This document shows positions 5,831 to 63,903 of a stretch of DNA of 64,000 bases, one piece after another. Both the position numbers and the translations under genes were made by a program. The number at the start of each line of letters is the position of its first letter. Positions within the stretch are counted from its first letter, which is position 1. A model generated the notes under the pieces. That model was not told the DNA's origin. It ran no database searches and saw only the letters and a program-made list of their open reading frames with translations. Origin of the DNA: an uncultured Nitrososphaeraceae archaeon (GTDB taxonomy: Archaea; Thermoproteota; Nitrososphaeria; Nitrososphaerales; Nitrososphaeraceae); NCBI GenBank assembly GCA_963825865.1, contig CAWGVG010000048.1:24947-88946 (forward strand), written 5' to 3'.

Positions 5831-6780
5831 GAGCCTATCCCAAAAATATAGACATGATGTTTTTATTTAACAGATAAGGACATAGCTCGATGTTCTTTTA
5901 TTTTATCTATGATTGGTCTTTATAGAAAGAAGAAACAACAACACCTTCCAACGATAAGACATATTCCAGATGATCTATGGAATGAGGTAAAGAACATACT
6001 CCCTGCTGAAAAGCCAATTGAAACAATAGGACGTCCAATAATTGTACCGTTTAGAAAAGTACTTGACGGAATACTGTATGTGCTGAGAACTGGATGCCAG
6101 TGGAAGATGCTTCCTAAAGAATATGGTTCTGCTTCCACATGTCATAGAAGGTTTCAGGAGTGGGTTGGTAAAATAACAGTATTTGAGAAATTATGGATTA
6201 GATTATTGGAAATATATGACGATATTCGCGGCATAGAATGGGAATGGCAGCAGTCACTAGACAGTGTTTCTGTTAAAGCTCCTTTAGGGGGGGGATCTGA
6301 CAGGTCCCAATCCTACTGATAGAGGTAAACTTGGAACAAAGCGTCATGTGTTGGCAGACAAGAAAGGTGTTCCATTATCCATTGTCATCACAGCTGCGAA
6401 TACTCATGATATGAAGGCTACAGCAGAGACGCTTGACTGCTGTATTGTAACAAAAAGAAGGCCTCCTCCTCCAAAGAAAAAGAAACAACAACAGAATCTA
6501 TGTCTTGATAAAGGATACAACTATCCAGAGATAGAACAGGAAGTAGTCAAGAGAGGATATGTACCGCATATCCGTCAGAGAGGTGAAGGGAAAAAATCAG
6601 TTAAGAAGAAAAGAAGACATCATCCATCAAGAAGATGGGTTATAGAAAGAACAAATTCATGGCACAACAGATTCAGAAAACTACTGATTAGATATGAAAA
6701 GAAAGCAGAGAATTATCTTGGACTAGTACATCTGGCCTGCTGCATAATTGTATACCGTAGGATAATTTTGGGATAGGCTC
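5831..6780 (+). mobile_element. IS5-family insertion sequence (IS427/IS1031-like), 950 bp
   Basis: 15-bp TIRs GAGCCTATCCCAAAA / TTTTGGGATAGGCTC; TTA target-site duplication at 5828-5830 and 6781-6783. Confidence 0.95.
5909..6776 (+). CDS. IS5 transposase, two ORFs joined by a -1 frameshift at G8 (6287-6294)
   Basis: GILYVLRTGCQW..LP; LDS.SVKAP; after the shift GPNPTDRGKLGTKRH; DKGY; RW.IERT.SW.NRFRKL. Confidence 0.9.
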
Positions 6781-7405
6781 TTAATAGCATAATCAGGCTT
6801 GTTCGTTCTGTCTTCATTTTTCTGATTTGAATAAACGAAGGTGTTTGCCAATCATAGAAAGAGGAAGGATAATAATAATGAGTATTGTTAACGTCAGTGT
6901 TAGAAAAACTTTCAGAATTTTTCTTATGGCATGCATTATACAACGATCTAAAAAAATATTTTATATGGCATAAGTAGTGATTCCAAGTAGTATTCTATCT
7001 TGCATCAGGATCCTCTATGGTTTTAATTTTCGTATCTAGAAATTTGATAATTTGTTCTGTTCTTTTAACATCAAAAAAAGTAGTATTAGAGTCAATATAA
7101 TACATACAAAGGTTATTGTAGCAATTGTATTCTTAAAGTTCCCCTTAGCAATACTGTCGACCAATCTATTATCTAATCAGAATTAGACTTTTATCTACTT
7201 AATCTTATTCAACAATAATTAAAAGGTTGTGATATCTCCTGTTAGTTACCATGCTTTAGAATCTCCCAAGTCACCAGAACTATTTTTACATATATGTATA
7301 CCGGAGGAGCAAAACTTAACAGGTTTATTGAAATCGATAAAACAGGTACTGGTAACAATATGGGTTTTCTTCATCCTCATCGATGTTATCACCCTGTGAC
7401 TCCAT

Positions 7406-7849
7406 TCATTTCAAATATCTAATAATTTTTTGGAGAAAAGCATTTTGATAAGCCTGAAATGCATCTTCACTCTGTAAGCATGATTGACAAATATAGGAGT
7501 TAGACTCTTCTCTTCCTCTATAATCGTCGTAGTAATCATAATCAGAAATATTTTCATCATCTCTGTTTTTTTTCTTTCCACAAATAAAACATTTGGCTAC
7601 TGTGGTTTGCAAAAATCTATTTTGTTTACGAATTACCGATTGTTTTTCTTGTTTATGGGTTACAGATTCTTCCTCATCCTTATTAGAAGTTACTTGGTCG
7701 GCGCTGCTAATAGAACAATCTAAATGTTTTATAGCTTTTGTGGATTTGGACCAAAGTGCTTGTTCTCCTGATCTTATCTCTCTTTTACATTCAATACATT
7801 TGCCTTTGAACTTGATAGTAATTGTCAACCAATCTGTAATATTACTCAT
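7406..7849 (-). CDS. Hypothetical zinc-finger protein
   Basis: CIEC...H..C, CFIC and CQSC motifs in a 147-aa ORF. Confidence 0.65.
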   Translation of the reverse strand: MSNITDWLTITIKFKGKCIECKREIRSGEQALWSKSTKAIKHLDCSISSADQVTSNKDEEESVTHKQEKQSVIRKQNRFLQTTVAKCFICGKKKNRDDENISDYDYYDDYRGREESNSYICQSCLQSEDAFQAYQNAFLQKIIRYLK

Positions 7850-8119
7850 GTTAGATCAATGGTACTTCTCTTATCTTAAAAAGTATAAAATCCGGGTATG
7901 ATGCACTCATTTATTAGCATGCAAGTCTAAGACACGTGGTTTGAGATAAAGAACTAAGCTTAGAATGAAGTAAATAACTTTTTTGTAACGTGAATAGATA
8001 GTCTCATGACTTTTCTTATGGACTTGATAGTTGCATACGATCCTTTGCAATTGTTGGTAAAATACGTCTATATACTTCTGTAAGAGTATATCATATTATA
8101 TGGAGGATGTTATTTGATT

Positions 8120-8386
8120 ATGAACAGCAAGAAAAACTGCGAACATTTCATTGGCATAGATGATAACAGTATTTCTCCTAAAACATCTGGCTGCGAAGAA
8201 TGTGAAAAAGAAGGAACTGATTGGGTTGCATTACGCATGTGTCTGATTTGTGGTCATGTAGGATGCTGCGATTCTTCTATAGGCCTTCATGCTACAAAAC
8301 ATTTCCAAAAAACCGACCATAAAGTTATGGTTGCACTACCAAACAAGCCATGGAAATGGTGTTACATACATAAACAATATTCGTAG
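8120..8386 (+). CDS. Stand-alone UBP-type zinc finger protein
   Basis: C.H...GCEEC...WVALRMCLICGHVGCCDSS...HATKHF...H...W.WCY is the zf-UBP signature. Confidence 0.92.
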   Translation: MNSKKNCEHFIGIDDNSISPKTSGCEECEKEGTDWVALRMCLICGHVGCCDSSIGLHATKHFQKTDHKVMVALPNKPWKWCYIHKQYS

Positions 8387-8766
8387 CCCTTTTCTTTCGT
8401 AAGATCATCAAGTTATGTCCTTTTCCAAGACTCACCAAACTAAAAGAACTTTGGAAAGTCTGCTGTAAATGCAGAGTACGTCTACATAATTGCGGACCAA
8501 TATGTTTGGTTTATAGATTATCCCATAGGAATTGCAGTGTTATATATAATAATAGTTAGATTAAATGGAGATGTTTTTGTGTGTTGCATGTAAGACCATC
8601 TTCATAATGCCTAACCAGAAATTGCGAAATCCATAAACCACAATGATTGTCATGCTCAAGTTGTCTTAGTCTCAATCATAATTGTGATTTTTCATAAAGC
8701 ATGCTGATTATTATAGAAATTATCTCGTCAATGCTTTTATCTTGATGTTTTTAATTTAACGAAATA

Positions 8767-8988
8767 GTGGAAAACAAAGCGCGATATGTTATTCTAGCTC
8801 TTTTGATTTTGATACCTTCCATAGTTAATCTTTCGGTTTCTCTTTACAATAGAAACATGCCAGAACTTTTTGGAATACCCTTCTTCTACTGGTTTCAAAC
8901 ATTATGGCTTGTATGTTGCTCTGGGTTTTACATGGGGTTTGCATATTTAATGGGCAGAGAGGATGGAGAAGGAAAGAGGAGATTCTAA
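8767..8988 (+). CDS. DUF3311-like small membrane protein (SSS accessory)
   Basis: YNR..PELFGIPFFYWFQ..W motif; lies directly upstream of the SSS gene. Confidence 0.85.
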   Translation: MENKARYVILALLILIPSIVNLSVSLYNRNMPELFGIPFFYWFQTLWLVCCSGFYMGFAYLMGREDGEGKRRF

Positions 8989-8991
8989 AAA

Positions 8992-10512
8992 ATGATTGGA
9001 CTTGATGGCACAATTCCCTTTGTTGGCCTTTTTGTATTGTTTATAGTTCTTGGATTTTACGGAAAATATTGGCGTAGAGGTGACTTAAATCATGTACATG
9101 AATGGTCTTTGGCAGGAAGAAGGCTTGGTACGGCACTTGTCTTTTTTTTAATTAGTGCAGACATTTATACTGCGTATACCTTTGTTGCAATTCCATCAGG
9201 AGTATTTGCCAAAGGCTCACTTTACTTTTTTGCAATCCCTTATGTTGCGTTGACATTTGGCATTGCTCTTGTCACCATGCCAAGGCTCTGGTCTTTATCA
9301 AGAGAAAAAGGATACATTACTGCTTCTGATTTTGCAAAAGACAGGTTTAGCAGCAAAACTCTTTCTATTCTAATTGCAATAACAGGAATCATATCGTTAC
9401 TGCCATACATTGCGTTACAGATAGTAGGGATGCAATCAGTTCTTACTGTAATGCTTTCAGGTACAGCGAATTCTCATACAGTCGAGGAAATATCGCTTTT
9501 GATTGCATTTGTAATATTGGCTGCCTTTACATATACTAGCGGACTACGTGGAGCAACGCTTACTGCAGTCTTTAAAGATATACTGATCTGGATAACTGTC
9601 ATTGCTCTCATAGTTGTAGTTCCTCTAAGCATTGGTGGAGGTGGTGGTTTTGGTACTGCCTTCAAGGATGCAAAAAAACAGACCTATGTTACATTGTCTG
9701 AATCGCTTGTTCCCGGATACGCAACACTGGTTTTGGGCAGCGCTCTTGCACTCTATCTTTATCCTCATGCGATAAACGGTGTACTAAGCTCAGAGAGTGC
9801 ACAAAAGCTTAGAACCAGTACGGCATTGCTACCGCTTTATGGCGTTGGGCTTGCTATTATGGCACTTATGGGAATTCTTGTATACGCTGTACCATCTGCA
9901 ATGAATTTCCTTTCGCATTTTTCCGAAAGCTCGCGTGGTATACTTGTTGTTCCATCTTTGATTTTATATACAATGCCAGGATGGTTTTCAGGAATAGCTC
10001 TTCTTGGTATATTCGTAGGTGGTCTGGTACCTGCAGCAATTATGGCAATGTCGCAGGCAAGCCTGCTTACAAGAAATATCATAAAAGAGATCAAACCAAA
10101 CATGTCTGCAAGTTCTGAAATTAGAATAACGAAAATTTCGTCTACTGTCTTCAAGTTTGTTGCACTTGGTTTTGTCTTTATGGTTCCAGCTACTTACGCA
10201 ATATCTTTACAACTTTTGGGAGGAATACTAATTGTACAAATTCTACCTGCAGTGTTTTTTGGTCTATATGTCAAATCATCATTAAGAAAAGAACCGCTTA
10301 TTGCAGGTTTACTTGTTGGAATATTTTTGGGAATTTACATGGTCGAGTATACAAACAACTTTGGTGCACTCACATCATCGCTATTCCAAACAACTTTTGG
10401 TTCATTGTATGTTGCAGTGATTGCCCTTATGTTTAACCTGATAATATCGTTTGGCGGAAGTGGAATCATGAACAAAAAAAGACTACCGTTCTCCCAACAA
10501 AACGAAAGATAA
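8992..10512 (+). CDS. Sodium:solute symporter (MctP-like monocarboxylate permease)
   Basis: EWSLAGRRLG, D.YTAYTF, PYIALQ..G, YTSGLRG, VPAAIM; paired with the DUF3311-like gene. Confidence 0.9.
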   Translation: MIGLDGTIPFVGLFVLFIVLGFYGKYWRRGDLNHVHEWSLAGRRLGTALVFFLISADIYTAYTFVAIPSGVFAKGSLYFFAIPYVALTFGIALVTMPRLWSLSREKGYITASDFAKDRFSSKTLSILIAITGIISLLPYIALQIVGMQSVLTVMLSGTANSHTVEEISLLIAFVILAAFTYTSGLRGATLTAVFKDILIWITVIALIVVVPLSIGGGGGFGTAFKDAKKQTYVTLSESLVPGYATLVLGSALALYLYPHAINGVLSSESAQKLRTSTALLPLYGVGLAIMALMGILVYAVPSAMNFLSHFSESSRGILVVPSLILYTMPGWFSGIALLGIFVGGLVPAAIMAMSQASLLTRNIIKEIKPNMSASSEIRITKISSTVFKFVALGFVFMVPATYAISLQLLGGILIVQILPAVFFGLYVKSSLRKEPLIAGLLVGIFLGIYMVEYTNNFGALTSSLFQTTFGSLYVAVIALMFNLIISFGGSGIMNKKRLPFSQQNER

Positions 10513-10906
10513 TAATAATAAAACACATCTTTCTATATTTTATGTCACTGCGGAGTGAGATTTGAGGCAGAAGAATACATCTAAACATCTGAATCTTGAC
10601 CATCTGCCACCTAGAACAACACAAAGTAATTATTCACAACAGAAAGTCATTGTAAGTATAAAGTTGAATTATAAGGACATTTTCGGGAAAAGACATCCTT
10701 ATAAGACAGATCTTGATGCAAGCGCTGAAGCAGCAGAAATTTAGGAATATCTATTCTCTACAAGACTTCTCTCCAATCTTCAAACATATCTATTAGTGCT
10801 CTCCAGGAATATCTAACACCAATCGCCTAAGTTATCATTCTTCTGGTAACTTACAATGTAGCGACTTATCAATTTATATACTTACTTTTTTATAGTTAAT
10901 ATATAC

Positions 10907-11755
10907 ATGCAAGAACGAAAAAATGTTGCACTTGTTACTGGTAGCTCAAGAGGCATAGGATTTGAAACATCCCTCTTGCTAGCAAGGGCTGGATTTCATA
11001 CGTATGCTTCTATGCGTAACCTTGAAAAATCCAAAAACATAACAGAAATAGCCAGTACTGAAAAATTACCATTGCAAGTTGTTCAGCTCGATGTCAATGA
11101 TGACAGGTCTGTCAAAGATGCAATCGACAAAATAGTAGGAGCAGAAAACAAAAGAATCGATGTATTAGTAAACAACGCAGGATATGGACTTTTTGGATCT
11201 CTTGAAGATATATCAATAGAAGAGATAAAAGCACAATTTGAGACTAATTTTTTTGGAGTAATACGTGTAACACAGCAAGTTCTTCCTGTCATGAGGAAAC
11301 AAAACAGCGGCACAATAATAAATGTAAGTTCGGTTGGAGGGCGTATAGGTGTTCCTGTTTTGTCTGCCTATCAAAGTACAAAGTTTGCATTAGAAGGTTT
11401 AAGCGAATCAATGTCATATGAACTGGAGCCATTTGGAATTAGAGTAGTTATAATTGAACCCGGTTTTATCAGAACTAACATTATAAACTCAAGCACTTCG
11501 GCAAAAAAGGCTCTAGGCCCCAAATCACCATATTTTTCACTGATGCAAAAAGTAGAGAACCACTTCAAATCAATGATGGAAAATGCATCGTCTCCGCCAG
11601 AAGAAGTAGCAAGGGTTATACTACAAGCCCTAACATCTGAAAATCCACAACTAAGATACACTGTAGGTAATGACGCCGCTACTATAATACAAGCAAGGAT
11701 GAATATGCCTGACAAGGATTTTCGAAAAATGGTAATTCAAAACTTTTCATTATAG
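10907..11755 (+). CDS. Short-chain dehydrogenase/reductase
   Basis: TGSSRGIG, NNAG and YQSTK catalytic motifs. Confidence 0.95.
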   Translation: MQERKNVALVTGSSRGIGFETSLLLARAGFHTYASMRNLEKSKNITEIASTEKLPLQVVQLDVNDDRSVKDAIDKIVGAENKRIDVLVNNAGYGLFGSLEDISIEEIKAQFETNFFGVIRVTQQVLPVMRKQNSGTIINVSSVGGRIGVPVLSAYQSTKFALEGLSESMSYELEPFGIRVVIIEPGFIRTNIINSSTSAKKALGPKSPYFSLMQKVENHFKSMMENASSPPEEVARVILQALTSENPQLRYTVGNDAATIIQARMNMPDKDFRKMVIQNFSL

Positions 11756-11803
11756 TACTGCGAGTTAAAAAGTCCTTTTATATAATCATAAAGCCCAATC
11801 AGT

Positions 11804-12461
11804 ATGAATAAAAAGATACTAACTGTCATTATTATAGTAGTAGCTGCAGTAGCAATACCTTTTTGGTATATACACTATTTCTCCGTTGTTTACTAGCAAC
11901 ACAGTAAATGAGCTCTTACCAACAACTGCTGCTATTGTAAACAATTAGGCGGCAGTACAAGAGTATCAAAAATTCATTTCCATGAATGAACAAGATAGAA
12001 TGAATGCTGCTAAACATATGAATCAAACGGAGAAAAATATGGTTATGATAGGAGCTGATCAGATAAATAATACTATTAATGAAAATGCCATGATCCTGGG
12101 AACAATCAAACAACAACAAGTCAATGCAACCATTACCTCCAAAATAAGGACTGGTACTTTCATTGGAGCTGGTGACGGATTTCACAATACAGAAGGATTA
12201 GCAAAAGTAATTCCCTTAGGACAAGGAAGTATCGTCATCAGATTGGAAAACTTCAATTCTAATAATGGACCTAATGTTCATCTTTATATGTCTACTGATA
12301 AAGCTGCCTCAAATTTCATAGATCTTGGAAGGTTGAAAGCAAATAACGGAAATCAAAATTACAATATACCTAATGGAACAGACCTAGTGAAATATAATAT
12401 GGTTTTGATATGGTGTAAGAACTTCTCTGTACTGTTTGGAAGCGCAGAACTAAAGACATAA
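11804..12461 (+). pseudogene. DM13-domain secreted protein with a disrupted 5' end
   Basis: Signal peptide MNKKILTVIII at 11804, then a frameshift and an in-frame TAG near 11947. DM13 motifs GPNVHLYMS, DLGRLK..GNQNY and VLIWC..FSVLFG are intact. Confidence 0.8.
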
Positions 12462-12618
12462 CTTGAGAAGAAACCATTCCTCAAAGTGGATATAACCACG
12501 CCAACAGGTGTTCCAGAGAATATGGATCTCCTTCCTTTGATAATTTTTAAGTTCCATATAAAAAAGATTCTAGTAAAGCTAACAATTCTTTACGACAAAT
12601 ACAAAAAGAATATACTGA

Positions 12619-12774
12619 TTATTTCTCTTCCTTTTCTGTGAGAATTTGGTAGTTCCCCTTTTGCATGTGTTCTAGTAATACATGCCGTTGCATATCGCCC
12701 AAGCTATCAAATTTTGTATTACATAACTTGCATGTAATGCTGTGCTGCTCTAGTAATGCATCTTCTTTGGACAT
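12619..12774 (-). CDS. Small C2H2 zinc-finger protein (51 aa)
   Basis: Manual translation MSKEDALLEQHSITCKLCNTKFDSLGDMQRHVLLEHMQKG...; below the ORF-track length cut-off. Confidence 0.75.
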   Translation of the reverse strand: MSKEDALLEQHSITCKLCNTKFDSLGDMQRHVLLEHMQKGNYQILTEKEEK

Positions 12775-13288
12775 ATTGCCTGCTGCCTAGTATATTGGTA
12801 ACACCGGTAATAAATGTTATAAAAATTCATCGTAGATATTGAACCCTAAAGTATGTCGAAAAATGATAATTCTTTATGGTTTTTTTTATGGTTATCTTCT
12901 TCCTCAGATTCATGAAGATCTTTTGTAAACGGCGCAAACACATTCCTACAAACAACAAATAAGCATTTGTTTCAAGGTCTAAATCCAGGAGGGATTTATC
13001 AAGCGATATGGTATTGATAACGATGGTTTGTTAGAACAAAGCCATAATGTTTTGACTCTATCTAAGATAGATAGATCTAGGAATTTAATGAATTCATTTC
13101 TTTTCTCTAGTATATGTCTTATTGTTCTTGGCACTATCTGTGGCCCAGTTATCACAGCTTAGATTTTTGTTGAACCAATTAGGAATAGTCATAAGTACAT
13201 CAAGAGAAACTATTTTTCCTAGGTCTTATTTTGTGGTGTATCTGAAATGCCAGTTTCAGTTTATACACGTTAATAAAACACATAGATA

Positions 13289-14428
13289 TTGAACATCCAG
13301 GCAAACTATACTATCCAACCCATCCTTATGGTGTTTTTGCACCACAAGGACAAACGGCACAATTCAGATTGCAAAGAAAATATAGAAAAGGTCATTAAGA
13401 TCAGAAACGTAAAGTCAAAAATATCTATGGACAAAATCCAAAAGGCTATTCTTATTTCTATAATATCAATAGCAGCAGTATCTTGGGTATTATCTAAAGA
13501 TCAATTTGATATGATGAAGGCTATGATGACTAATGATCCTATTGCACTTTCATTATTTACTGCTAGTTGGACAGTCGGAATGGCTGCAATGATGTTTCTA
13601 GCGATAACGCCAATGGTTTTGCTTTACAATAGATTGATAAATCGCGACAACGATGCTGGCGATGGAAGAGGTGATATTAAATCATCATCACAGTCTTCGA
13701 TAGTTATCGAAGGTAATGATAAGAGCATAAGAGATAGGAATAGATCATTTTTTGCTAATGCTGCAAATATGGTATTATTTGTCGGATCTTATCTTGTAGT
13801 CTGGGCTATAACAGGAATTGCACTTTTATTTGCATGGTCAATTCCAATGAACTATTTTTTTATACATTTGCAAAGCTATCATAATCAACAATTACAAATC
13901 GTGTATGGAATCATATTGATCATTTCTGGAGTATATCAATTTAGTTCGCTGAAAAGAAAGTGTCTTGGATACTGTGAATCTCCACTGAGTTTCTTTATGA
14001 GAAGGTGGAGAAGCGGAGCTTTTGGCGCAGTAAAGATGGGAACGTACCATGGTCTTTACTGCCTTGGATGCTGTTGGCCTTATTTTCTTCTTATGGTGGC
14101 TTTAGGTTGGATGAATCTATTATGGATGGGATTGTTTGCAGGTATTATTTTTGGAGAAAAGATATGGCGTGAAGGCATATGGATTGCGAGATCTGCAGGA
14201 ATTGGGTTTGCAATTGTTGGGATTATGATAATTAGCGGGATGATAACAATTCCTACTACGCACATGGCTGGTATGAATATAGATATGAAATCTAATAATC
14301 TAGGGGATAATTTGAAGAAAGACAGCACGATTGGAATGAATCATAATATGATCGATAATATGGTGGCTTCTAAAACGAATATAAACAAGAACAAAACCAC
14401 AACTATGCAAAATATGAAAGGTATGTAA
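13289..14428 (+). CDS. DUF2182 predicted metal-binding integral membrane protein (likely start MDKIQK near 13427)
   Basis: W..GMAAMM, YQFSSLKRKCL..C..P, GLYCLGCCW..., GWMNLLWM, EK motifs; Met-rich tail. Confidence 0.88.
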   Translation: MNIQANYTIQPILMVFLHHKDKRHNSDCKENIEKVIKIRNVKSKISMDKIQKAILISIISIAAVSWVLSKDQFDMMKAMMTNDPIALSLFTASWTVGMAAMMFLAITPMVLLYNRLINRDNDAGDGRGDIKSSSQSSIVIEGNDKSIRDRNRSFFANAANMVLFVGSYLVVWAITGIALLFAWSIPMNYFFIHLQSYHNQQLQIVYGIILIISGVYQFSSLKRKCLGYCESPLSFFMRRWRSGAFGAVKMGTYHGLYCLGCCWPYFLLMVALGWMNLLWMGLFAGIIFGEKIWREGIWIARSAGIGFAIVGIMIISGMITIPTTHMAGMNIDMKSNNLGDNLKKDSTIGMNHNMIDNMVASKTNINKNKTTTMQNMKGM

Positions 14429-14817
14429 CATATGAACCATACATTGGAAGAATAGCTTAAGATGTTGCCAAATCAGTCAACTTATCACCTGCTACATACA
14501 AACGTGAAAAACAGTCTATCGTTTTGGATATTCTGATACTTGGGGTTGTAATAACTGCAAACAAAAATGTGACAAGTGGTTTATGCATAAGCATTTTTGT
14601 AAAGGTCTATTAAAGTGATCTCTGACCACTAGGTCAAAGTCAAAATGTACTCCAGTCTACAAGATGCGTAGAAATCAGTCTTCAGTCTTTCAGAAATATC
14701 CCTGATTCTGTTTTGCTTTTCAAAAGGTAATCGAAAGTGTAACCTATCACTCTAAGTACAACAGGTAGTTAACGATAGCACACCAATTTTAATAAGGATT
14801 ATCAATACTTTATCTCA

Positions 14818-15462
14818 TTATGGTTTGTATCCTATTAGAAGTGCCATCTCGAGCCATTTCCAATAACAATCTACATCTACAAATCCTATCTCTTTAAGCC
14901 AGTTTAGCTGCGTTTCCATAGGTAATAACTTGTCGGACTTTCCTTCTATTTGCGGAGTATAGCCAATAGCTTTTAGAAAACGCATATGAAGTGCTATAGA
15001 GGGCGATGGTACGTGTTCAAGATTGCAAAATACACCTGTTTGATTCAGTATATCATAAATCTCTTCATATAGCGAGCGTTTGCGTTCATGCTTTAAGTGA
15101 TGAATAGCAAAGCTTGAGACAACTGCATCAAAATAACCCAGATCTGATGGCAAAGGATACTTAAAGTCATGTTCAAGCACTTTAACATTAGGATCGTTTG
15201 CAAAATGATCTCGTGGAGCTTTGAGCATAGTTGGAGAAACGTCTAATGCTACAGCCTCTAAATTTGGTCTATTTATCTTTAACAATCTTATTAACCGTCC
15301 ATCTCCTGTACCAAGATCAAGAATTCGTTTTGCTTCATTAGGAATATGCTCTAGAAGTACGGCCTCACCTTCTGTGCGATGTGGAAGATGGTCTTCTACA
15401 TTCAGATATGCTAGAGCATGTTGAACAGAGGACCAGTCCTTTCCAGACTGACTTTCATTCAA
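14818..15462 (-). CDS. Class I SAM-dependent methyltransferase
   Basis: ILDLGTGDG, FDAVVSSFAIHHL and VDCYWK motifs. Confidence 0.92.
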   Translation of the reverse strand: MNESQSGKDWSSVQHALAYLNVEDHLPHRTEGEAVLLEHIPNEAKRILDLGTGDGRLIRLLKINRPNLEAVALDVSPTMLKAPRDHFANDPNVKVLEHDFKYPLPSDLGYFDAVVSSFAIHHLKHERKRSLYEEIYDILNQTGVFCNLEHVPSPSIALHMRFLKAIGYTPQIEGKSDKLLPMETQLNWLKEIGFVDVDCYWKWLEMALLIGYKP

Positions 15463-15741
15463 AGTAGATTATTGTTCTTTACAAAGATCTATATAAATAA
15501 ATCATTCAATTTCCATCAAATGCTAACTAATTCTGTTCAATAAGATATGGAACTGAACGACAAGCTGGGCTGTTGAAATCGATTAAACCCGGTAATAATG
15601 GCAGTAACAATACGGGTTGATGCTAGCCTTGCTATTGCATATTCACATAGATTATACGATCAATATTTGGATCTCGTAAAAACATTATTCTATAGTGAAT
15701 AGGTTTTTGTTTCATTGTTGATATTTTTATTTATTAATAAT

Positions 15742-15972
15742 ATGGGCCATGGTATTGATGTGTTAGAAATCGCGACTGGTCTCAAAGACGCATTAATAAA
15801 TAGTGGACTTACTATTGAATCCATACTTAATTTTGGACCCGTAGAAATTGCCTCTATACTTGGAATAGACGTCTATGTAGCAAAAATTATCTTTGACGCA
15901 ACCAAAAATGCTGTTAATAATAATGGTTTTAAAACACAACAAAATAATGTGATCGAATTAGAGCATATATAA
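15742..15972 (+). CDS. Hypothetical small protein
   Basis: Protein-like ORF (GLKDALINSGLTIESIL...EIASILGID.YVAKII) with a helix-hairpin-like pattern. Confidence 0.55.
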   Translation: MGHGIDVLEIATGLKDALINSGLTIESILNFGPVEIASILGIDVYVAKIIFDATKNAVNNNGFKTQQNNVIELEHI

Positions 15973-16097
15973 GTTCATTTGCAAATTTTTCATCTTGTTA
16001 CTATCGATATTATATGAGTTGTCCTTGAAAAGGTATATTTTCAAGCATATTGTATTTATAATTTTGACTGTAATCACAAAGGAGAGATAATAGGGAA

Positions 16098-16842
16098 ATG
16101 CAACTAGTTCAGATATCAGATATCCATATTGGAAGTTTTTTCAAACAAGAAGTCTTTGATAGCGTAGTCGATGAGGTTAACAAACTAAAGCCAGATGCAA
16201 TAATCATCACAGGTGATCTTACCGATGAAGGTCTGCTATTTCAATTTGAACACGCTAGTGAAGAAATAAAAAAATTCAATTGTCAGAACCTAATAGTTTT
16301 GGCAGGAAATCATGATTACCGCCATACAGGATACTTAGTTTTCAAGAAGTTTTTTTCTACTTCAAAACAAATTTATGAATTCGATGATGCAATAGTCCTA
16401 ACTCTAGGAACTGCTCGGCCTGATAGAGATGAAGGTGAAGTAGGATATAGACAGAATCTATGGATGGAAAAGACTCTGAGCAAATATAACAATAATAAAA
16501 CAAAGATTATTGCAATGCATCACCATTTAATTGGAATTCCTGATACGGGTACTGATAAAATCATTATCCTTGATGCAGGCGATACCCTGAGAGCGTGCCT
16601 TCAATCTAAAGTTAGTTTAGTTCTATGTGGTCATAAACATAGACCATGGGTCTGGAAGTTAGGATCTTTGGAAATTGCATATGCTGGTACATGTAGCATC
16701 AACACGCTTTAGAGGTTTTTTCGAAAATTCATACAACATTATAGAGATTAAAGATGGAAAAACAAATGTTGACATAAAAATAGTAGGTGGCAAAAGATTT
16801 CCTCTTTTAGATCTAGTTGAAAAATACAAACCATATTTGTAA
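16098..16842 (+). CDS. Metallophosphoesterase (Icc/CpdA-like), frameshift near the 3' end
   Basis: SDIH, TGDLT, GNHD, HHH and GHKH motifs. The frame continues STRFRGFFENSYN after a shift near 16695. Confidence 0.88.
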
Positions 16843-17383
16843 AGCTGATCGTGTTGTTTTTAATATAAACAAAATTTGATAGCTTTATAGCGTATCTAAC
16901 CACACCGAAAGAGGAAATCTATTTGGTTCTGTTTGACCAGCCAAAAAAAGATTTGTATGAGTTTGTCAATTTTTTATATTTTTATATGTTTGGTTATCTT
17001 GCATTTGCACTTACTATATTACTTGTGTTAATGTCAATACCACGTTGACTGCATGAGTAGGTTGTATCACCACCAAAGATACATGCTCGCTCTTCGGGTA
17101 TTGCCTTGTAAATTTGTGAGCTTGCGGTAGCCCCTACGTTTGTAGATACAGTATTGCCACAGGTGTTATCTAGCTGTGCTGCCTCATCATATGAATCTCC
17201 CGTAGATGCACTTGCACATGGTTGGTGCCGTACCTAGAGCCTACCATATACTTTTTCCAGTGATGCCATATATTGAAGGCCAGAGCTTTGCCGAGATTTC
17301 AATCCGTGAGACTCGATGAGCCCACAAGTCATTCTCAAGCTTGCACTGGAGCTCAAGATGGCTATATCTGCCGTTTCAATTCT

Positions 17384-24930: not shown

Positions 24931-25941
24931 CTAATAGTGACAAACTATTTCCTTTCTGAAAATCTCAATCTGCTCTTCAAAATCGCTTATGGGCCAGAAA
25001 TGTATACGCTTTACTCCAGCTTCACGAAGGGCATTTATCTTTTGAATACACTCTTCAACACATCCAAAGAGAAGTAGATTTTCTAACTGCTCTACAGGTC
25101 TCCCTAATGCGGGAGATAATCTATCTTTTACCATCCTGTGAACTTTGTCCTTATCGTTATCAATATACCCAAACATTGACATAACAGAGTTTTCGAACGA
25201 TTCGCTGTCTCTGCCTAATCTTTTTCTGTATGACATAAGTATATTCCATTTTTCTCTGAACTTGTCTGGCGTAATATTATAAGCGGACGCCATCCAACCA
25301 TCACCATATTTTGCAGCCCTTCTTAGGCCTGCTTCTGATGATCCCCAAGTCCCTATGAAGATATGGGGATGAGGTTTTTGTAATGGTTTGGGTGCAATAG
25401 ATATTTTCTCTAATTGATAATATTTGCCATTATAGTCTACGTATAATGTTGAAGTACCAGACTTCAAATCGTCGTCATCATCTTCTTCTCTCTTACTATT
25501 ATTCCAAAGTATATGCAAAATCTCTAATGCTTCATTAAACCTACTCCATCTTTGTTCAAAAGGAATTCCACAGACATCATAATCTCATTTATGTGAACCA
25601 GGCCCAACTCCTGCTGCAAATAGCCTTCCAGAAGATAAAATATCTATAGCTGATAAAGCCTTGGCACATATGACAGGATTTCTTACAACTATATTTAGTA
25701 TAGACGTACCAAGTTTTATCCTATTGGTTACTGCAGCAACTGCTGACAATGTACTTAGCGAGTCCAACCAACTGGTTCTAAAAACAATATGATCATTTAC
25801 ACTCAATGAATCATATCCAAGAGACTCGGCCTTTCTTGCAATCGAAAGCATTTGTTCTCTTGTATGAGGCTTTTCATTTTCTCCATTCCATCCCTTAAAC
25901 CCCATAACGGGTAAATGAACTCCAAATACAAGCTGTTTCAT
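24931..25941 (-). pseudogene. LLM-class flavin/F420-dependent oxidoreductase with one in-frame TGA
   Basis: AESLGYDSL.V.DH, T.RIKLGTS, S.GRL, PKPLQKPHP and RAAKYGDGW motifs. The two ORFs are in the same frame across the stop at 25585-25587. Confidence 0.88.
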
Positions 25942-26015
25942 TGTATCAGGGACAAATAAACCAATGTATCATAAAAAGTAGTATATCATATAGGCAATGT
26001 TGTTTAGGTTGCATA

Positions 26016-27129
26016 GGGGTTGTTGCCTAATTCGTTTTAATTGACTGTAAATATGATTTCACGGTTTTCGATTTAGCTTAGAAAGGGTATGCACCCTCTT
26101 ATTGACTTGCAAGCACAAGAGGAAAGATGGTTACTGGTTGTGTTACCATCTAGCACATACCCTAGAACGAGATATGCTTATCGAAAATATAGTTTCTCTG
26201 GTCAAAGAAAATCCTCCTCCTACTTCAAAGAAGAACAGTAATAGAGGAAGGAAACCAATTCATTCTTGGGAAAAACTTGTCTGTATTTGTATATTGATGG
26301 TTGTTTTCGGTTCAACGTACAGAGATATACAGAATATAGTACCCTCTCTTAATTTGCCATGGAATAACGAGCCATATCCAGATCATACGTGGATATCACG
26401 TACATTCAAGAAGATACCGCTGATATATCTTGAACGTGTACTAATATGGTCAGCTTATCTATGTTTGAAAGAATCAGGCTGGAAGAAGGGTATTCTCGCA
26501 TCAGATAGCACCGGTGTAGAGACAAACAGGTACGGATACGAAGTAACGATTTATCAAAAATAGTAGTAAGAAATTCGAAAAGATAAGGGTAAAACAGTAT
26601 CTGAAATGGCATATCACAGGGATACTTGATCATCTCATAATACTTAATACACGACTTACCAGTAAGAAAACACACGATTCTCCAGTACTCCGAACAATGC
26701 TAAACAGATTGAAGAAATATAGATTAGACTTTGCAGGTTCAACATTCAATGGTGACAGAGCTTATGATGGCAACAAGAACTTCCAGTCAGTGTTTAACAT
26801 GAACATGCTTCCAAATATCAAGCAGAGAAAAAACTCCAAGAACAAGAATAGCAGTAGTAAGAAGAACAAATACAGAAAGAAGGCTGAAAGATATTCAATG
26901 CATCAATATATCGTTATAGAGGATTGATAGAAGGAATATTTGGAGCTGAAGAAACTAAACATCATCATCATCAGCTATACTGCACATTCAGATTAAAGAA
27001 CAATCAGAAAAGATTTGGATTAATTAAATCAATAGGCTGGAACCTAGAAGTCCTTAACAGACTACAATGTGCAAACAAACTGGGAATAAAGGTGACACCA
27101 TATGCGATATCAAATTAGGCAACAACCCC
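26016..27129 (+). mobile_element. IS5-family DDE insertion sequence with a fragmented transposase (26102-27118)
   Basis: 17-bp TIRs GGGGTTGTTGCCTAATT / AATTAGGCAACAACCCC flanked by TA. Motifs PDHTWISR, DSTG, DRAYD and IEGIFG. Confidence 0.9.
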
Positions 27130-27394
27130 TATATCAGTGAAACCAATGTCTTCTTGTAGTCCTACTATTAAGAAATTGATAATATCCTATATATAATTCT
27201 GAAAATGGACTAGGAGCGAAATGAATTTTTAATAATCATTAAAATATAGAATTGATTAACTAAATATATTGTTGCTATCGGCTGTATTTACTGTTTTCTT
27301 TCAAACTTGCGCCTTAAAGCTATTGCAATAAGACCAAAGGTCAGAGAACCACCAGCTATCTTGATGACGTGGTCTAATAATCCTATCTCCACCT

Positions 27395-27454
27395 TGCTTC
27401 CATTAGGCTTGCATGAGATTTTTTATCTTTTACATGCTTCCATTAGGCTTGCAT
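27395..27454. repeat. Perfect 20-bp direct repeat pair upstream of the terminase gene
   Basis: TGCTTCCATTAGGCTTGCAT at 27395-27414 and 27435-27454, separated by a 20-bp AT-rich spacer. Confidence 0.9.
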
Positions 27455-27552
27455 AAAATAAAAGTTGATCAATTTTTACCTTGCTAGTTGTTTAATAAAG
27501 ACTTAACACCAAAAGACAAGCTTTTAGCTTTGAAAAATAGAAATAGTGTAAG

Positions 27553-29052
27553 TTGACATGGAAGGATCTTAAGCGATTCGTTATCGATAACAACTACAAT
27601 AATGAACAGAAAGAACAAGAAGTAAAATTACAATCGGCAGAACGTTTTGCAATATTCAAGAATTTACCATTCTGGATATCCGATGTTGAAGAGCATAAGA
27701 AAGCCGATATTGCAAATAACGGAAAATGTTGTTTTAATTATATCATCGGTTTGCCTAAGAAGGATGGAATAGACAAACCTATTTTCGACTACGAAATGCA
27801 GTTAGTAAATGCATTAGCTAAGCCCACTCTTAACAAATCTATATTTGTCAAGAAAGCAAGAGGGTTAGGAATCACTGAAATACTTTTAAGATATATGTCA
27901 TGGCTAGCAGTGTTTGACAGCACATATCATAATTGCAGATTTCATATTGTGACTGGCCCGAGGATTAATCTGGCAGAGGAACTAACAGATAGAATCAGGT
28001 TATTATTTCAAAATTGCAAAGCTGGAGCTATTGAAGTAAAACAGGTAGGCCCTATAGTTTATGTAAATAATGTAACAATACAGGCCTTCCCATCTCACAC
28101 AGTTTCAACTATGAGAGGCTATACTGATGTCAAGTTTATTTTCATAGATGAAGGAGCCTTCTTTGCTCCAGGGCAGCAGGAAGAAGTCAGGGCTGTATGT
28201 GAGGGTTATCGTGCAAAGACAAACCCGCATATTGTTCTTGTATCAACACCATACAAGCCAGGTGATCTATTCGAACATATAGACAGAGATCCAAATTCTA
28301 TATTCAAAAAATTATCATATCATTATTCCGTTGGACTTGGCAAGATATACAATGAACAAGAGATAGAGAAAGAAAAAAGTCAACCGTATTTTAGAAGAGA
28401 ATTTGAGTTAGCATATTCTGTTGGCACAGGCAATGTGTTTACTGAGCAATCAATTCAAGCTGCTGAAGAGTTAGGAAGAAAATACAAAGGTAGGACCAGT
28501 TTTGAAGGCACGCAAAAAAGTCTAGGAATAGATCCAGGATTCGGATCTAGCAAGACTGCATTCACAGTAATAGAATGCGTTGATAATCTGGCACATGTTA
28601 TCTATTCAAAGCAGTTTGAGAATTCAAGCACAGAGCATATGGTAAGCCTGGCATACAATCTAATAAGACAGTATAATCTGAACAATGGAATTAACAAGGT
28701 ATTCGTAGATGGCAGCCAGCCTGGATTTATTCGGAGCTTAAAAATAGCAATAGGCGAATACGCACAATACGAGCATTTTGTAGAAAGAGGAAAGCAGGAT
28801 AACAACAGGCCATTGCATCTATATATGAATGTAGTTCCTGTCAACTTCTCTACGAAACATAGAGCTATGTTAGGTAATGTGCGCAAATGGATTGACAAAG
28901 GTCATGTTGCCATAGATCCTGATTTATTTCCTGAATTGCTAACAGAATTACGAATTGCAACAAGTGATGAAGAGATGTCACTTGATAAAACTGAGTATTC
29001 GATGGACTTGCTTGATAGCCTTAGGCTTTCGATGGAATACATCGTTTATTGA
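27553..29052 (+). CDS. Terminase large subunit-like ATPase/nuclease
   Basis: Walker A-like KKARGLGITE, Walker B FIFIDEG, motif III VSTP, RREF, RNase H-type nuclease GIDPG...TAF, VFVD and DLLDSL; intact 499 aa. Confidence 0.85.
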   Translation: MTWKDLKRFVIDNNYNNEQKEQEVKLQSAERFAIFKNLPFWISDVEEHKKADIANNGKCCFNYIIGLPKKDGIDKPIFDYEMQLVNALAKPTLNKSIFVKKARGLGITEILLRYMSWLAVFDSTYHNCRFHIVTGPRINLAEELTDRIRLLFQNCKAGAIEVKQVGPIVYVNNVTIQAFPSHTVSTMRGYTDVKFIFIDEGAFFAPGQQEEVRAVCEGYRAKTNPHIVLVSTPYKPGDLFEHIDRDPNSIFKKLSYHYSVGLGKIYNEQEIEKEKSQPYFRREFELAYSVGTGNVFTEQSIQAAEELGRKYKGRTSFEGTQKSLGIDPGFGSSKTAFTVIECVDNLAHVIYSKQFENSSTEHMVSLAYNLIRQYNLNNGINKVFVDGSQPGFIRSLKIAIGEYAQYEHFVERGKQDNNRPLHLYMNVVPVNFSTKHRAMLGNVRKWIDKGHVAIDPDLFPELLTELRIATSDEEMSLDKTEYSMDLLDSLRLSMEYIVY

Positions 29053-29088
29053 TATTGATATTTAGAAGATTAGCATTATTAGATTGGA

Positions 29089-29247
29089 TTGAATTGGAAG
29101 AAACCTCCAAACAAACAAGATCAAGGACTTTCTAGAATTATATCTGTTAAATATCGAAAACCTATCCGCAAATTGAGGAAGAAGAGAAGATACAACGCAC
29201 TAATAGTAAACATAGCCTCAATCTTGGGACGTAGAATAAGTGAGTGA
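29089..29247 (+). CDS. Small highly basic hypothetical protein (52 aa)
   Basis: TTG start 37 bp after the terminase stop: MNWKKPPNKQDQGLSRIISVKYRKPIRKLRKKRRYNALIV... Confidence 0.35.
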   Translation: MNWKKPPNKQDQGLSRIISVKYRKPIRKLRKKRRYNALIVNIASILGRRISE

Positions 29248-29377
29248 CTAAGTAAACAAATTGTCGAAGAAATTCATGTACCCTATTAACATACAAACTC
29301 CTCGTAGCAACTCAATCTAAAAACATAAACACAGCGGTGCCGTTATCATATCCTTAGAGAGAGAAAGATAGACCGAG

Positions 29378-29650
29378 ATGTCCAAATTAACTCAAATACA
29401 AAAAGAACAGTTAAAACGCATAATCTTAGATTCTACACTTCAACGTCTAACAACTGCTAAGACTCAGGCGCATGTAAAGGATAAACTCGGAGTTGAAATC
29501 ACTATAGATTACCTAAATCATGTAAAGATGGAGCTAAGGCAAGACTCACAAAAGGAGTTAGACCATTTGAGAAAAAACCGTTTCTCATACATGAACCATT
29601 TGTTTTTTGAGCGCGTATACGAAGTAAAGAAAATGCAGAGAAAGCTCAGT
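29378..29650 (+). pseudogene. Helical/HTH-like protein, truncated; possible terminase small subunit
   Basis: KLTQIQKEQLKRIILDS...T...QAHVKDKLGVEITIDYLNHVK followed by a coiled region. The reading becomes non-protein-like after about 29645, shortly before the antisense HsdR remnant. Confidence 0.45.
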
Positions 29651-29724
29651 TTTGACACGTCTGCTTTTAATGATATAATATGGAATAATTATTGTCCCAT
29701 ATTGTATTTTCCCTTTCTTTTGAA

Positions 29725-30035
29725 TCATGGAAGGTTTCGCTTGGCCAAGTCTATAATTTCCGGAGTTATCTTGTCAACTTTATCTTCAAGATACTTATTT
29801 TCTGTCAGGATATCATAAATAGCAATACTTAATTTCTTTTCAGAGCTTGTCTTTGTCTTCCAGCCTACTATTTTTGCTTCTTCTTTTACCTTGATAAATA
29901 TTGACTCTGTAGTGCTTTTTGAAGTGTTTTTGTCATCTCTTATTGATTGCAATTCCTCATAGACTGCAAATTCAAATGGCGTAGAGAACCCAAGCTTTTT
30001 TCGTTGTTTCTCTGTATCTAATGCTTCAGTGTTAC
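29725..30035 (-). pseudogene. Type I restriction subunit HsdR C-terminal (DUF3387-like) remnant
   Basis: RKKLGFSTPFEFAVYEEL...VGWKTK...IYDIL...IIDLAK pattern. Confidence 0.55.
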
Positions 30036-32351: not shown

Positions 32352-32669
32352 TCAAATCATCATCAAATCATCAACAGATGAAACTACTACTATCCCTGCG
32401 CTAGTCGTTCCTGTCTTTGCTGCTTCTTTGATAACAGAAACTGCTTCTTTGACCTTATTCTCATCAGCAATTGATACTACTTGACTCCTAGTAGAATATG
32501 CCATCTTTTGGGTTCCTGATCCTTTACCATAGCTTACTGTATATTTTTCCCCCTTTCCCATTCCTTTAGATTCATAGAATGTAGCCTGTAAGCCTAAGTC
32601 TTCTAAAGCAGATAACACATAAGGAGTCCTCTCAGAGGCAATAAATGCTTCAATTCTCTTCATTACCAT
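32352..32669 (-). CDS. P-II family nitrogen regulator (divergent, no C-loop)
   Basis: MKRIEAFI...SKGMGK...YSTR...AAKTG...GIVVVSSVDD; paralogue of 1042. Confidence 0.88.
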   Translation of the reverse strand: MVMKRIEAFIASERTPYVLSALEDLGLQATFYESKGMGKGEKYTVSYGKGSGTQKMAYSTRSQVVSIADENKVKEAVSVIKEAAKTGTTSAGIVVVSSVDDLMMI

Positions 32670-62150: not shown

Positions 62151-62495
62151 ATGAAAAGATTAGATATAATAATTCCTCACGAACGCGTCGGAGAGCTAAA
62201 TGAAGTTCTCCATAAGCACAATGTCGGTGGTATGACATTTTATGATATCAAAGGTAGAGGTCGTTCAAAAAATGAACCAATATACGTAGGCACAGGTGTA
62301 ATGAAATATGTCCCAGAGTTTGGGCTTGGAACAAAGGTTGAAGTCCTGGTTTCAGATTCACAAGCAAAGCAGATTATAGACGATATTCTAAATATTATAG
62401 GTACAGGCTCAGCTTATGATGGCAAAATATTTGTCTACGATGTTACAGAAGCTTACGACATAGGCACGAAGAAAAGTGGCGATAGTGCAATATAG
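62151..62495 (+). CDS. P-II nitrogen regulator (GlnK/GlnB-like) adjacent to amt
   Basis: MKRLDIII, VGGMT...KGRG, KVEVLV and GT....DGKIFV motifs. Confidence 0.92.
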   Translation: MKRLDIIIPHERVGELNEVLHKHNVGGMTFYDIKGRGRSKNEPIYVGTGVMKYVPEFGLGTKVEVLVSDSQAKQIIDDILNIIGTGSAYDGKIFVYDVTEAYDIGTKKSGDSAI

Positions 62496-62654: not shown

Positions 62655-63903
62655 CTAGATCTTGTCAAAATCGCCTTCATCACTATATGCACGTTCAGCA
62701 TGCTCTTCAATGTCAAGACCCCTTTCCTCTGTCTCACGAGAAACTCTAACTCCTATCAGAACGTCTAAGACTTTCATTATTATGAAAGTTCCTCCGAAAC
62801 CCAATGTTCCCGCGACACCAACTCCTATTGCTTGAATGAGAAGTTGATGAGCATTACCGAATAATAAACCATTTGGACCTGCGGGATTTATTAATGTGCT
62901 TGCAAATATCCCAATTGCAAGAGATCCGATAATTCCCGCAATGCCATGTACTGAACTTACATCAAGTGCATCATCTATCTTTAGCCTATCTTTCAAGAAG
63001 ATCACTCCCATATATGACGCAATACCGACCGCAAATCCAATCACAAAGGCATGCTCAACGCTTACGAATCCTGATACAGGAGTTATTCCTGCAAGGCCTG
63101 CTATGGCACCATTTATAGCAGCAATCACGCTTGGCTTATGAGTTCTCATCCAAGAAAGACCAACCCATACAAGAGCTGAGACCGCCGAAGCCATATGAGT
63201 GACAATCATAGTATTTCCGGCTACAGCACCAGAAGCTAATGCACTCCCAGCGTTAAAGCCAAACCAACCCAACCATAAAAGCGAAGCTCCCAGAACGGCA
63301 ATGGGTATGCTATGTGGAACCATTATCGATGGACCATAATTTAATCTTCTTCCCAAAACTAGGACTGCACCAAGCGCTCCCATTCCTGCACTTGTATGAA
63401 TTGTAATTCCACCTGCAAAGTCCTTAACTCCTAGTTTACCAAGCCAGCCTCCACCCCAAATCCAGTGAACTAGCGGATAGTATATCAGAAAGCTCCATGC
63501 AGCAATAAAAAGAACAAATGCACTAAATTTCATTCGTTCAGCTATCGCGCCGGTCAATAACAATGGGGTAATGACTGCAAACATCATTTCGAATTTTGCA
63601 TATAGAACTCCCGGGATGGTTGGTGCATAATTAAGTGAACTATCAAAAGGCACGCCTTTAAGAAATGTCCAGTCTAGATTGCCAACAAGGCCAGCGGTAT
63701 CAGGCCCAAATGTTAGACTGAAACCGAAGACAAACCACATCACACTCAAGAGTGCTACTCCGAGAAAGATCTGCATAAAAATGGAAACTGTATTCTTTTT
63801 TCGCAGTAACCCTGCTTCAAATAATCCTAAGGCCGGAATCATTAATAACACAAGGCTGGAAGCTACAAGCATCCAAGCAGTGTCTCCAGAGTTTATTGGC
63901 GCG
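62655..63903 (-). CDS. amt: Ammonium transporter (Amt family)
   Basis: SGDTAWML, FAVITP.L..GAIAER, DFAGG..IH, LW.GWFGFNAGS, GAIAGLAGITP, DDALDV..VHG; twin-His retained. Confidence 0.96.

Follow-up and report, generated by a model that had tools for sequence, protein, structure and literature searches.

An intact large terminase gene in a Nitrososphaeraceae archaeon as the probable relic of a TerS-TerL integrative element

Here, we propose that an intact gene for a large terminase subunit (TerL) in an uncultured Nitrososphaeraceae archaeon is probably the orphaned relic of an integrative element that carried small and large terminase genes (TerS and TerL), and not a working packaging module at the locus where it now stands. 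The gene occupies positions 27553-29052 on the forward strand of a 64,000-nucleotide stretch of contig CAWGVG010000048.1 (assembly GCA_963825865.1, positions 24,947 to 88,946), the whole of which we call the window. TerL would have arrived in a small integrative element consisting of a tyrosine integrase, a replication protein, a 175-amino-acid (aa) helix-turn-helix (HTH) TerS-like protein, TerL and a few small open reading frames (ORFs). Such an element, of a kind common in Nitrososphaeraceae, would have lacked capsid and portal genes, and its remainder would have been lost or scattered in a pseudogene-rich genome ridden with insertion sequences (IS). What makes the case interesting is the pattern across the family, in which elements bear a terminase and no capsid genes; so far, a terminase complex has counted as a hallmark of the complete tailed virus.

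The TerL gene and its product

The 499-codon frame is open throughout, with no internal stop. A first-pass annotation of the window had read it as an intact 499-aa TerL with ATPase and nuclease motifs, and this reading was borne out by profile match, predicted structure and invariant residues. The protein matches PHROG 2 (phrog_2, terminase large subunit) over residues 73-435 (E 2.2e-19). It has no match of its own in Pfam, NCBIfam (where a 146-aa window ORF has none either) or PADLOC, and its relatives match PF03237 and PF17289 barely above the cut-off. Two homologues of full length (P0002 and P0003) are 88% identical to it. A profile search of PDB sequences was marginal (SPP1 nuclease, E 0.063), so that it fell to the fold search to decide the identity of the protein.

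The AlphaFold2 model, built on an alignment of 45 sequences, has a mean pLDDT of 89.9 and a TerL-like fold. Its best Foldseek match in the PDB is T4 gp17 (3ezk, E 1e-17), followed by D6E, Sf6 gp2 and HK97 TerL, with E values for the four from 1e-17 to 3e-13 and both domains covered. Taken by domain, the ATPase part aligns to the T4 gp17 and P74-26 ATPase structures and the nuclease part to the G20c, SPP1 and P74-26 nuclease domains (TM score to target 0.59-0.65). The same alignment served to find invariant residues, all of which are present in the window protein: in the N-terminal ASCE/P-loop ATPase domain, K101, G104, G106 and E109 of a Walker A-like motif, E200 of Walker B (its neighbour D199, also present, being nearly invariant) and S231/T232 of motif III; in the C-terminal RNase H-like nuclease domain, the acidic residues D327, D386, D485 and D488. 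The Walker A motif is non-canonical, as in our reading its lysine is placed upstream and the GK[ST] position reads GIT.

The window protein thus has in common with the TerLs of tailed viruses (T4 gp17, D6E, Sf6 gp2, HK97) the two-domain fold of ASCE ATPase and RNase H-like nuclease, the Walker B DE, the motif III S/T, the acidic nuclease set and PHROG 2. It differs in its deviant Walker A, in its lack of a Pfam match and in a sequence identity to solved TerLs of only 9-17%; unlike them, it also has no detected portal or capsid neighbour, a difference that concerns its context and not its family membership. Judged from sequence and model, the ORF is a genuine large terminase that looks catalytically complete. 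The TTG start is common to the other copies of the same subfamily in the alignment; we considered it as a sign of decay and rejected this, as every subfamily copy has it.

Around this gene the window holds ordinary chromosomal genes, several of them split in two, and transposases. A Pfam scan of 66 of the 83 window ORFs of at least 90 aa (those left out being TerL, the 146-aa ORF and nested ORFs) found no capsid, portal, protease or tail gene among them, in agreement with what had been noted at first sight for the 64 kb. When the TerS, integrase, replication, primase and downstream proteins of relatives were compared with the window by tblastn, only two weak TerS-like traces of 14-24 aa appeared, 14 and 27 kb from TerL (E 0.004-0.03). 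A tblastn search with all of the relatives' ORFs gave a single integrase trace, a 64-aa fragment at 515-706. Hence no TerS-like sequence lies closer than 14 kb to the window TerL, and within 27 kb of it there is neither an integrase nor a replication gene. There is no tRNA in the window.

TerL copies in the genome and their elements in relatives

The genome (an assembly of 4.98 Mb in 62 contigs, 81.8% complete, 35% GC) contains the family many times over. Searched with the window TerL, it gave 65 tblastn matches that merge into 52 TerL loci, while the 175-aa HTH TerS-like partner has 51 loci; nearly all loci of both kinds are fragments. A TerS-like piece lies within 1.5 kb of TerL at six of the 52 TerL loci, the window locus not being among these. 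In a profile search, 46 ORFs matched the TerL profile and four of these covered at least 300 positions; full-length TerL ORFs number two, that of the window (contig C48) and one on C4, and about six ORFs of the TerS-like partner are near full length. Counting copies and comparing neighbourhoods therefore told against the packaging module that the first-pass annotation had envisaged at this locus: its companions in the genome are mostly fragments, and it stands without the partner that relatives have in small elements.

The divergence of these copies bears on how they came to be there. Between the in-genome fragments and the intact copies, synonymous divergence (dS) ranges from 0.15 to 1.8, and the ratio of nonsynonymous to synonymous divergence (dN/dS) is 0.02-0.27, for the most part 0.03-0.15, in 27 of the 28 computable pairs, the exception (0.8) involving a 114-codon piece at the end of contig C21. 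Comparable values were obtained for C4 against C59 (dN/dS 0.059, dS about 1) and for the window TerL against four metagenome fragments (dN/dS 0.016-0.11). In contrast, the two IS families of the genome are 98-100% identical among their copies. So wide a range of dS combined with so low a dN/dS indicates many independent arrivals and not duplication: the TerL copies are old, independently acquired alleles that were under strong purifying selection until recently. The simplest reading is that diverse TerL alleles arrived independently many times, having been kept under strong purifying selection in functional elements, and were then rapidly fragmented here.

What such functional elements look like can be seen in relatives. 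The TerL family is present in 18 of 24 sampled Nitrososphaeraceae genomes and, elsewhere in the order, in one of 16 genomes of other families; one relative has five intact copies. Among the 14 neighbourhoods examined, an HTH protein of 158-179 aa lies upstream of TerL at seven, a tyrosine integrase is present at six, a protein of about 750 aa with AAA-lid and winged-helix signatures at five and a D5-type primase at two. The elements are roughly 10 kb long, with integrase, replication protein and HTH partner and without a portal-sized ORF. At three of these loci, those with the best-delimited elements (L028, at 6688-16423, L033 and L036), the interval from integrase to replication gene contains, TerL aside, no ORF longer than 303 aa, which leaves no room for a portal.

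The model of the HTH partner (pLDDT 82.6) comprises an HTH, a long helical hairpin and a disordered acidic tail. Its seven top Foldseek matches are the small terminases of G20c and P74-26, albeit weak ones (E about 0.1), and in VIA it reached Z 7.9 over 113 residues, with small terminases at Z 7.5-7.9. Many unrelated helical hairpins rank higher there (Z 8-9), so the fold alone cannot prove a TerS; that the partner is TerS-like is plausible on the strength of the model. PADLOC has no match for it.

In light of such elements, what might their terminase do? In the native element, TerL and the HTH partner would act on the DNA that the element has replicated, recognising and cutting it and then pumping it into the procapsid of a helper tailed virus. 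At its present locus, the window TerL would no longer be able to do so in cis, and the most that might be expected of it is action in trans, together with any one of the roughly six near-full-length TerS-like ORFs elsewhere in the genome. We tentatively suggest that the small elements of soil Nitrososphaeraceae with integrase, replication gene, HTH-TerS and TerL are widespread archaeal satellites which have a complete terminase of their own, lack capsid genes and take procapsids from tailed thaumarchaeal viruses, a possibility to which we give less weight than to the relic status of the window gene. Such satellites may protect their host, through interference with the helper and through defence genes. 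If so, the window gene and some 100 TerL and TerS fragments would be the fossil record of many independent invasions. One TerS-TerL element of a relative, L031 (G013:C146; features at 6037-7272 and 10647-17037), has upstream of its TerS-like gene a 412-aa ClpP-like SDH-type serine protease (PF01972) with weak matches to head-maturation proteases, and downstream of TerL a GmrSD/HEPN protein (PADLOC HEC-05) and NurA/HerA-like genes, which constitute defence cargo.

Bacterial phage satellites redirect packaging in related ways: phage-inducible chromosomal islands (PICIs), among them the Staphylococcus aureus pathogenicity islands (SaPIs), do so with a TerS of their own, and capsid-forming PICIs with their own TerS and TerL. 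The elements of relatives resemble these satellites in being small and in having an integrase, a replication gene, packaging genes and, in L031, defence cargo; unlike known satellites, they have no identified helper virus. To our knowledge, no described class of satellite combines TerS and TerL with a complete lack of capsid genes. The available portions of recent preprints on archaeal satellites report no terminases, and a 2026 provirus survey, in the part available, keeps only elements with hallmark genes.

The closest precedent is NitKor-E1 of Nitrosopumilus koreensis AR1, which has TerS and TerL and no other caudoviral gene according to the portion consulted of a survey of thaumarchaeal integrated elements (Krupovic et al. 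2019; PMC6563490). The same portion records TerL in five genomes only, states that terminases were not seen in non-viral elements and treats NitKor-E1 as an enigmatic exception, suggested to be a relic. Compared by description only, L028, L033 and L036 are like NitKor-E1 in combining a TerS-like protein, TerL and an integrase with no recognisable capsid, portal or tail. NitKor-E1 was reported there as a single case, whereas the present TerL family is multi-copy and occurs in the 18 genomes noted above. The window copy differs from NitKor-E1 in having lost TerS and integrase: no TerS-like gene lies upstream of it, and in place of an integrase and defined borders its flanks consist of an IS and unrelated gene fragments. 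Judged by titles and abstracts, the later literature holds no account of terminase-bearing, capsid-less elements in Nitrososphaeraceae.

Given TerL and its HTH partner in small elements across most of the sampled genomes, the strong purifying selection on this TerL family and the dozens of invasions of one genome, we argue that the exception, a TerS-TerL element without a capsid, is the rule in soil ammonia-oxidising archaea. If these are terminase-carrying satellites, they would represent a new mode of parasitising viruses and a new participant in the interplay of viruses with hosts that are important to the soil nitrogen cycle. For annotation, it follows in practice that a TerL found alone in these archaea should not be taken as evidence of a provirus.

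Several observations weigh against the relic and its capsid-less source. Most of its neighbours are broken and the genome has a GC content of 35%, yet the ORF is still open over 499 codons, which may be due to selection at the locus and not solely to recent arrival. Around the elements of relatives, a search for att sites and tRNA targets found none and the borders of these elements are undefined, so the claim that they are capsid-less rests on ORF sizes and on searches with hidden Markov models (HMMs). HMM libraries detect archaeal capsid and portal genes poorly, and our searches missed them in four of the five related viral contigs examined. The assignment of the HTH partner as TerS is weak, its best matches being marginal and helical hairpins being common. 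Finally, a helper provirus could sit in the part of the genome missing from an assembly that is 81.8% complete.

Other readings of the locus

A first alternative, which we consider unlikely, is that the window TerL is the last gene of a full head-tailed provirus whose capsid, portal and tail genes have been deleted, the account offered for NitKor-E1 in the consulted portion of PMC6563490. In its favour, a quick TerL tree, in which long-branch joins are unsure, groups the window copy and L028, its closest cellular relative, with two viral contigs (45 and 64 kb long) as their sisters (SH-aLRT 99), and this genome does lose and fragment genes heavily. The related viral contigs are 35-100 kb long with genes on one strand; one has tail-fibre matches, and one, L062, encodes a protein resembling a portal (PF04860, E 3.4e-8, short of the curated cut-off), which also speaks for a provirus. 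In these contigs a different gene, of about 360 aa, precedes TerL, and L060 and L061 have proteins of 500-750 aa besides.

Had whole proviruses decayed at random, structural genes should have left debris as well, and this counts against the account: beside 52 TerL and 51 TerS-like loci, the genome matched no candidate structural protein from the 11 related viral contigs or from the two loci of relatives compared with it. PF05065 and PF04860 have no matches in the whole assembly (control genomes do give matches). Twenty-five ORFs of at least 120 aa from two proviral or mobile-element loci of relatives, one of which is a provirus with a portal-like gene, gave no structural-gene match in the genome; TerL aside, only five ORFs of L039 and one helicase of L040 found counterparts. 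Of the 214 proteins of 11 related viral contigs, TerL alone recurs, with 26-45 matches each, and the candidate structural proteins have no match; the few other proteins that do are, where identifiable, non-structural (a multicopper oxidase and an Ig-domain protein). The HTH partner family, moreover, has 2259 homologues in a metagenome protein collection, none in a scan of IMG/VR and one weak match (E 3e-5) among 80 viral loci with a related TerL, and the same small layout of integrase, replication gene, TerS and TerL recurs in relatives.

A second alternative, to which we give little credence, is that a functional packaging or satellite module without capsid genes stands at this locus and uses helper capsids, with a direct repeat as its recognition site and small neighbouring genes as partners. 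The features concerned are as follows.

26013-27132, forward strand: IS element with perfect 20-bp terminal inverted repeats (TIRs), a broken DDE transposase and weak DDE_Tnp matches
27294-27456, reverse strand: C-terminal fragment of an unrelated membrane protein (blastx to ORFs on C12 and C62; family of about 156-180 aa)
27488-27552, forward strand: conserved A/T-rich TerL leader of 65 bp, where homology with other copies starts, the flanks being unrelated
27553-29052, forward strand: intact TerL gene, 499 aa, TTG start, ATPase and nuclease domains
29053-29071, forward strand: 3' edge of the conserved TerL block; six other copies lose homology within about 20 bp past the stop
29089-29247, forward strand: Lys/Arg-rich ORF of 52 aa, no Pfam or PHROG match
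29378-29818, forward strand: truncated HTH-like piece, residues 1 to about 95 of a family of about 180 aa, followed by out-of-family read-through

For a working module speak the intact TerL with its complete set of catalytic residues, the near-full-length TerS-like ORFs elsewhere that could act in trans, and the conserved leader, which from its sequence appears promoter-like. The proposed accessory parts do not bear it out. The perfect 20-bp direct repeat exists (27395-27414 and 27435-27454), as had been reported, and its supposed role in a module fell away: it is part of a 40-bp tandem duplication (units 27384-27419 and 27424-27459, 81% identical) and belongs to the coding sequence of the minus-strand membrane-protein fragment, both copies encoding CKPNGS. 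Elsewhere in the 4.98-Mb genome the 20-mer is not found, even with up to three mismatches allowed, and it is not present in other copies of the window TerL subfamily, whose homology begins at 27449 or 27488. The 52-aa basic ORF, which had been counted as part of the module, is probably not a gene, as it has no family match and no other tblastn match in the genome, and the sole related flank, on C42, diverges after 29130.

The supposed TerS-like neighbour turned out to be the truncated N-terminus of a different multi-copy family with no detectable relation to the TerS-like partner family (hhalign probability 0.2%). This second family, of about 180 aa, has an HTH-like N-terminus and a helical middle part and no Pfam, PHROG or PADLOC match. 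By tblastn, the window piece (over 29378-29660) has relatives on C25 (17811-18356), C28 (8276-8836), C15 (55357-55905), C6 and C62 (188338-188865), those on C25, C28, C15 and C62 being intact. The lack of a nearby integrase, replication gene or TerS-like sequence, and of any helper capsid or portal detected in the assembly, also counts against a working module. The idea of a capsid-less packaging module finds real support at the level of the family, in the small elements of relatives, and fails at this locus, where the accessory parts are unrelated debris.

Also raised at first pass, and very improbable in our view, is that the window TerL is a domesticated host ATPase-nuclease with a cellular role in DNA cutting or translocation. 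The strong purifying selection on the family and an ORF that is intact amid pseudogenes would suit such a role, but selection at the level of the mobile element explains the purifying signal equally well. Against domestication speak the multiplicity of the copies, their lack of synteny and their linkage to integrases and replication genes, as well as the absence of TerL from six of the 24 Nitrososphaeraceae genomes and the fact that most copies in this genome are dead.

The edges of the conserved block raise one further possibility. In blastn and alignments, homology starts at 27487/27488 in C13 and in the metagenome locus L058 and at 27449 in C7. At the other end, L044, L046, L047, L048, L052 and L058 stop between 29053 and 29071 and C5 at 29056, and only C42 continues, to 29130. 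That the 1.58-kb block (27488-29065) is a self-mobile cassette moved by its own nuclease and ATPase might be argued from a 5' edge that abuts three unrelated flanks, from a 3' edge that falls within about 20 bp in at least six contexts, from subfamily B copies whose 5' ends lie, in at least five contexts, no more than about 50 bp before the start codon and from an internally deleted copy at one metagenome locus, but edges at gene borders are expected from modular exchange between functional elements, inspection by eye showed neither TIRs nor target-site duplications at the block ends (27488 and 29065), and the divergence of the TerL copies, with no near-identical pair in the genome where true IS copies are 98-100% identical, leaves this idea close to refuted. 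The internally deleted copy, in which the equivalent of window positions 27488-27737 is joined directly to that of 28838-29065, is found in six metagenome contigs (L053-L058), from a related organism, that represent one locus, being 99.4% alike and identical in layout.

Contigs assembled from four soil sequencing runs include many short pieces, 85-99% alike, over 27542-29146 (none spanning the stretch), with about zero cover over 29147-29360 and almost none over 29147-29467, a hint from sequence comparison that the TerL block is widespread and its flanks private.

Neighbouring DNA of the window

Many neighbours of TerL are indeed broken, as first described, among them a monooxygenase, an aldo-keto reductase and the transposase of the IS at 26013-27132. 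The monooxygenase is luciferase-like and split into 24934-25518 and 25588-25941; further split or truncated genes (examples lie at 1749-2763 and 24934-25941) include the aldo-keto reductase, in two parts, a thiamine pyrophosphate enzyme and a tyrosinase. The window DNA is a mosaic of blocks of 100-1600 bp whose relatives, 70-95% identical, are scattered across other contigs, and six metagenome contigs from a related organism show the same fragment mosaic. The suggestion that TerL caused the shuffling of nearby fragments found no support; the visible agents are high-copy IS elements at 98-100% identity.

Two IS families have undergone massive expansion. The IS at 26013-27132, of about 1.12 kb, has some 13 further copies in the genome at 98-99.6% identity (blastn). 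A second IS of about 1.05 kb has some 45 copies at 98-100% identity, in addition to an older set that is about 76% identical, and the window also holds pieces of IS4/5, DDE_Tnp_4 and DDE_3 transposases. On C62, the second HTH-like family is found close to MCM-like helicase fragments, and it may belong to another type of mobile element. A 506-aa ORF at 8992-10509 is unrelated to TerL and has no Pfam family at E of 0.001 or below. An ammonium transporter gene (62658-63872) lies beside a P-II gene (62151-62492), with two more P-II-like ORFs at 32355-32669 and 1045-1419, which fits an ammonia-oxidising archaeon.

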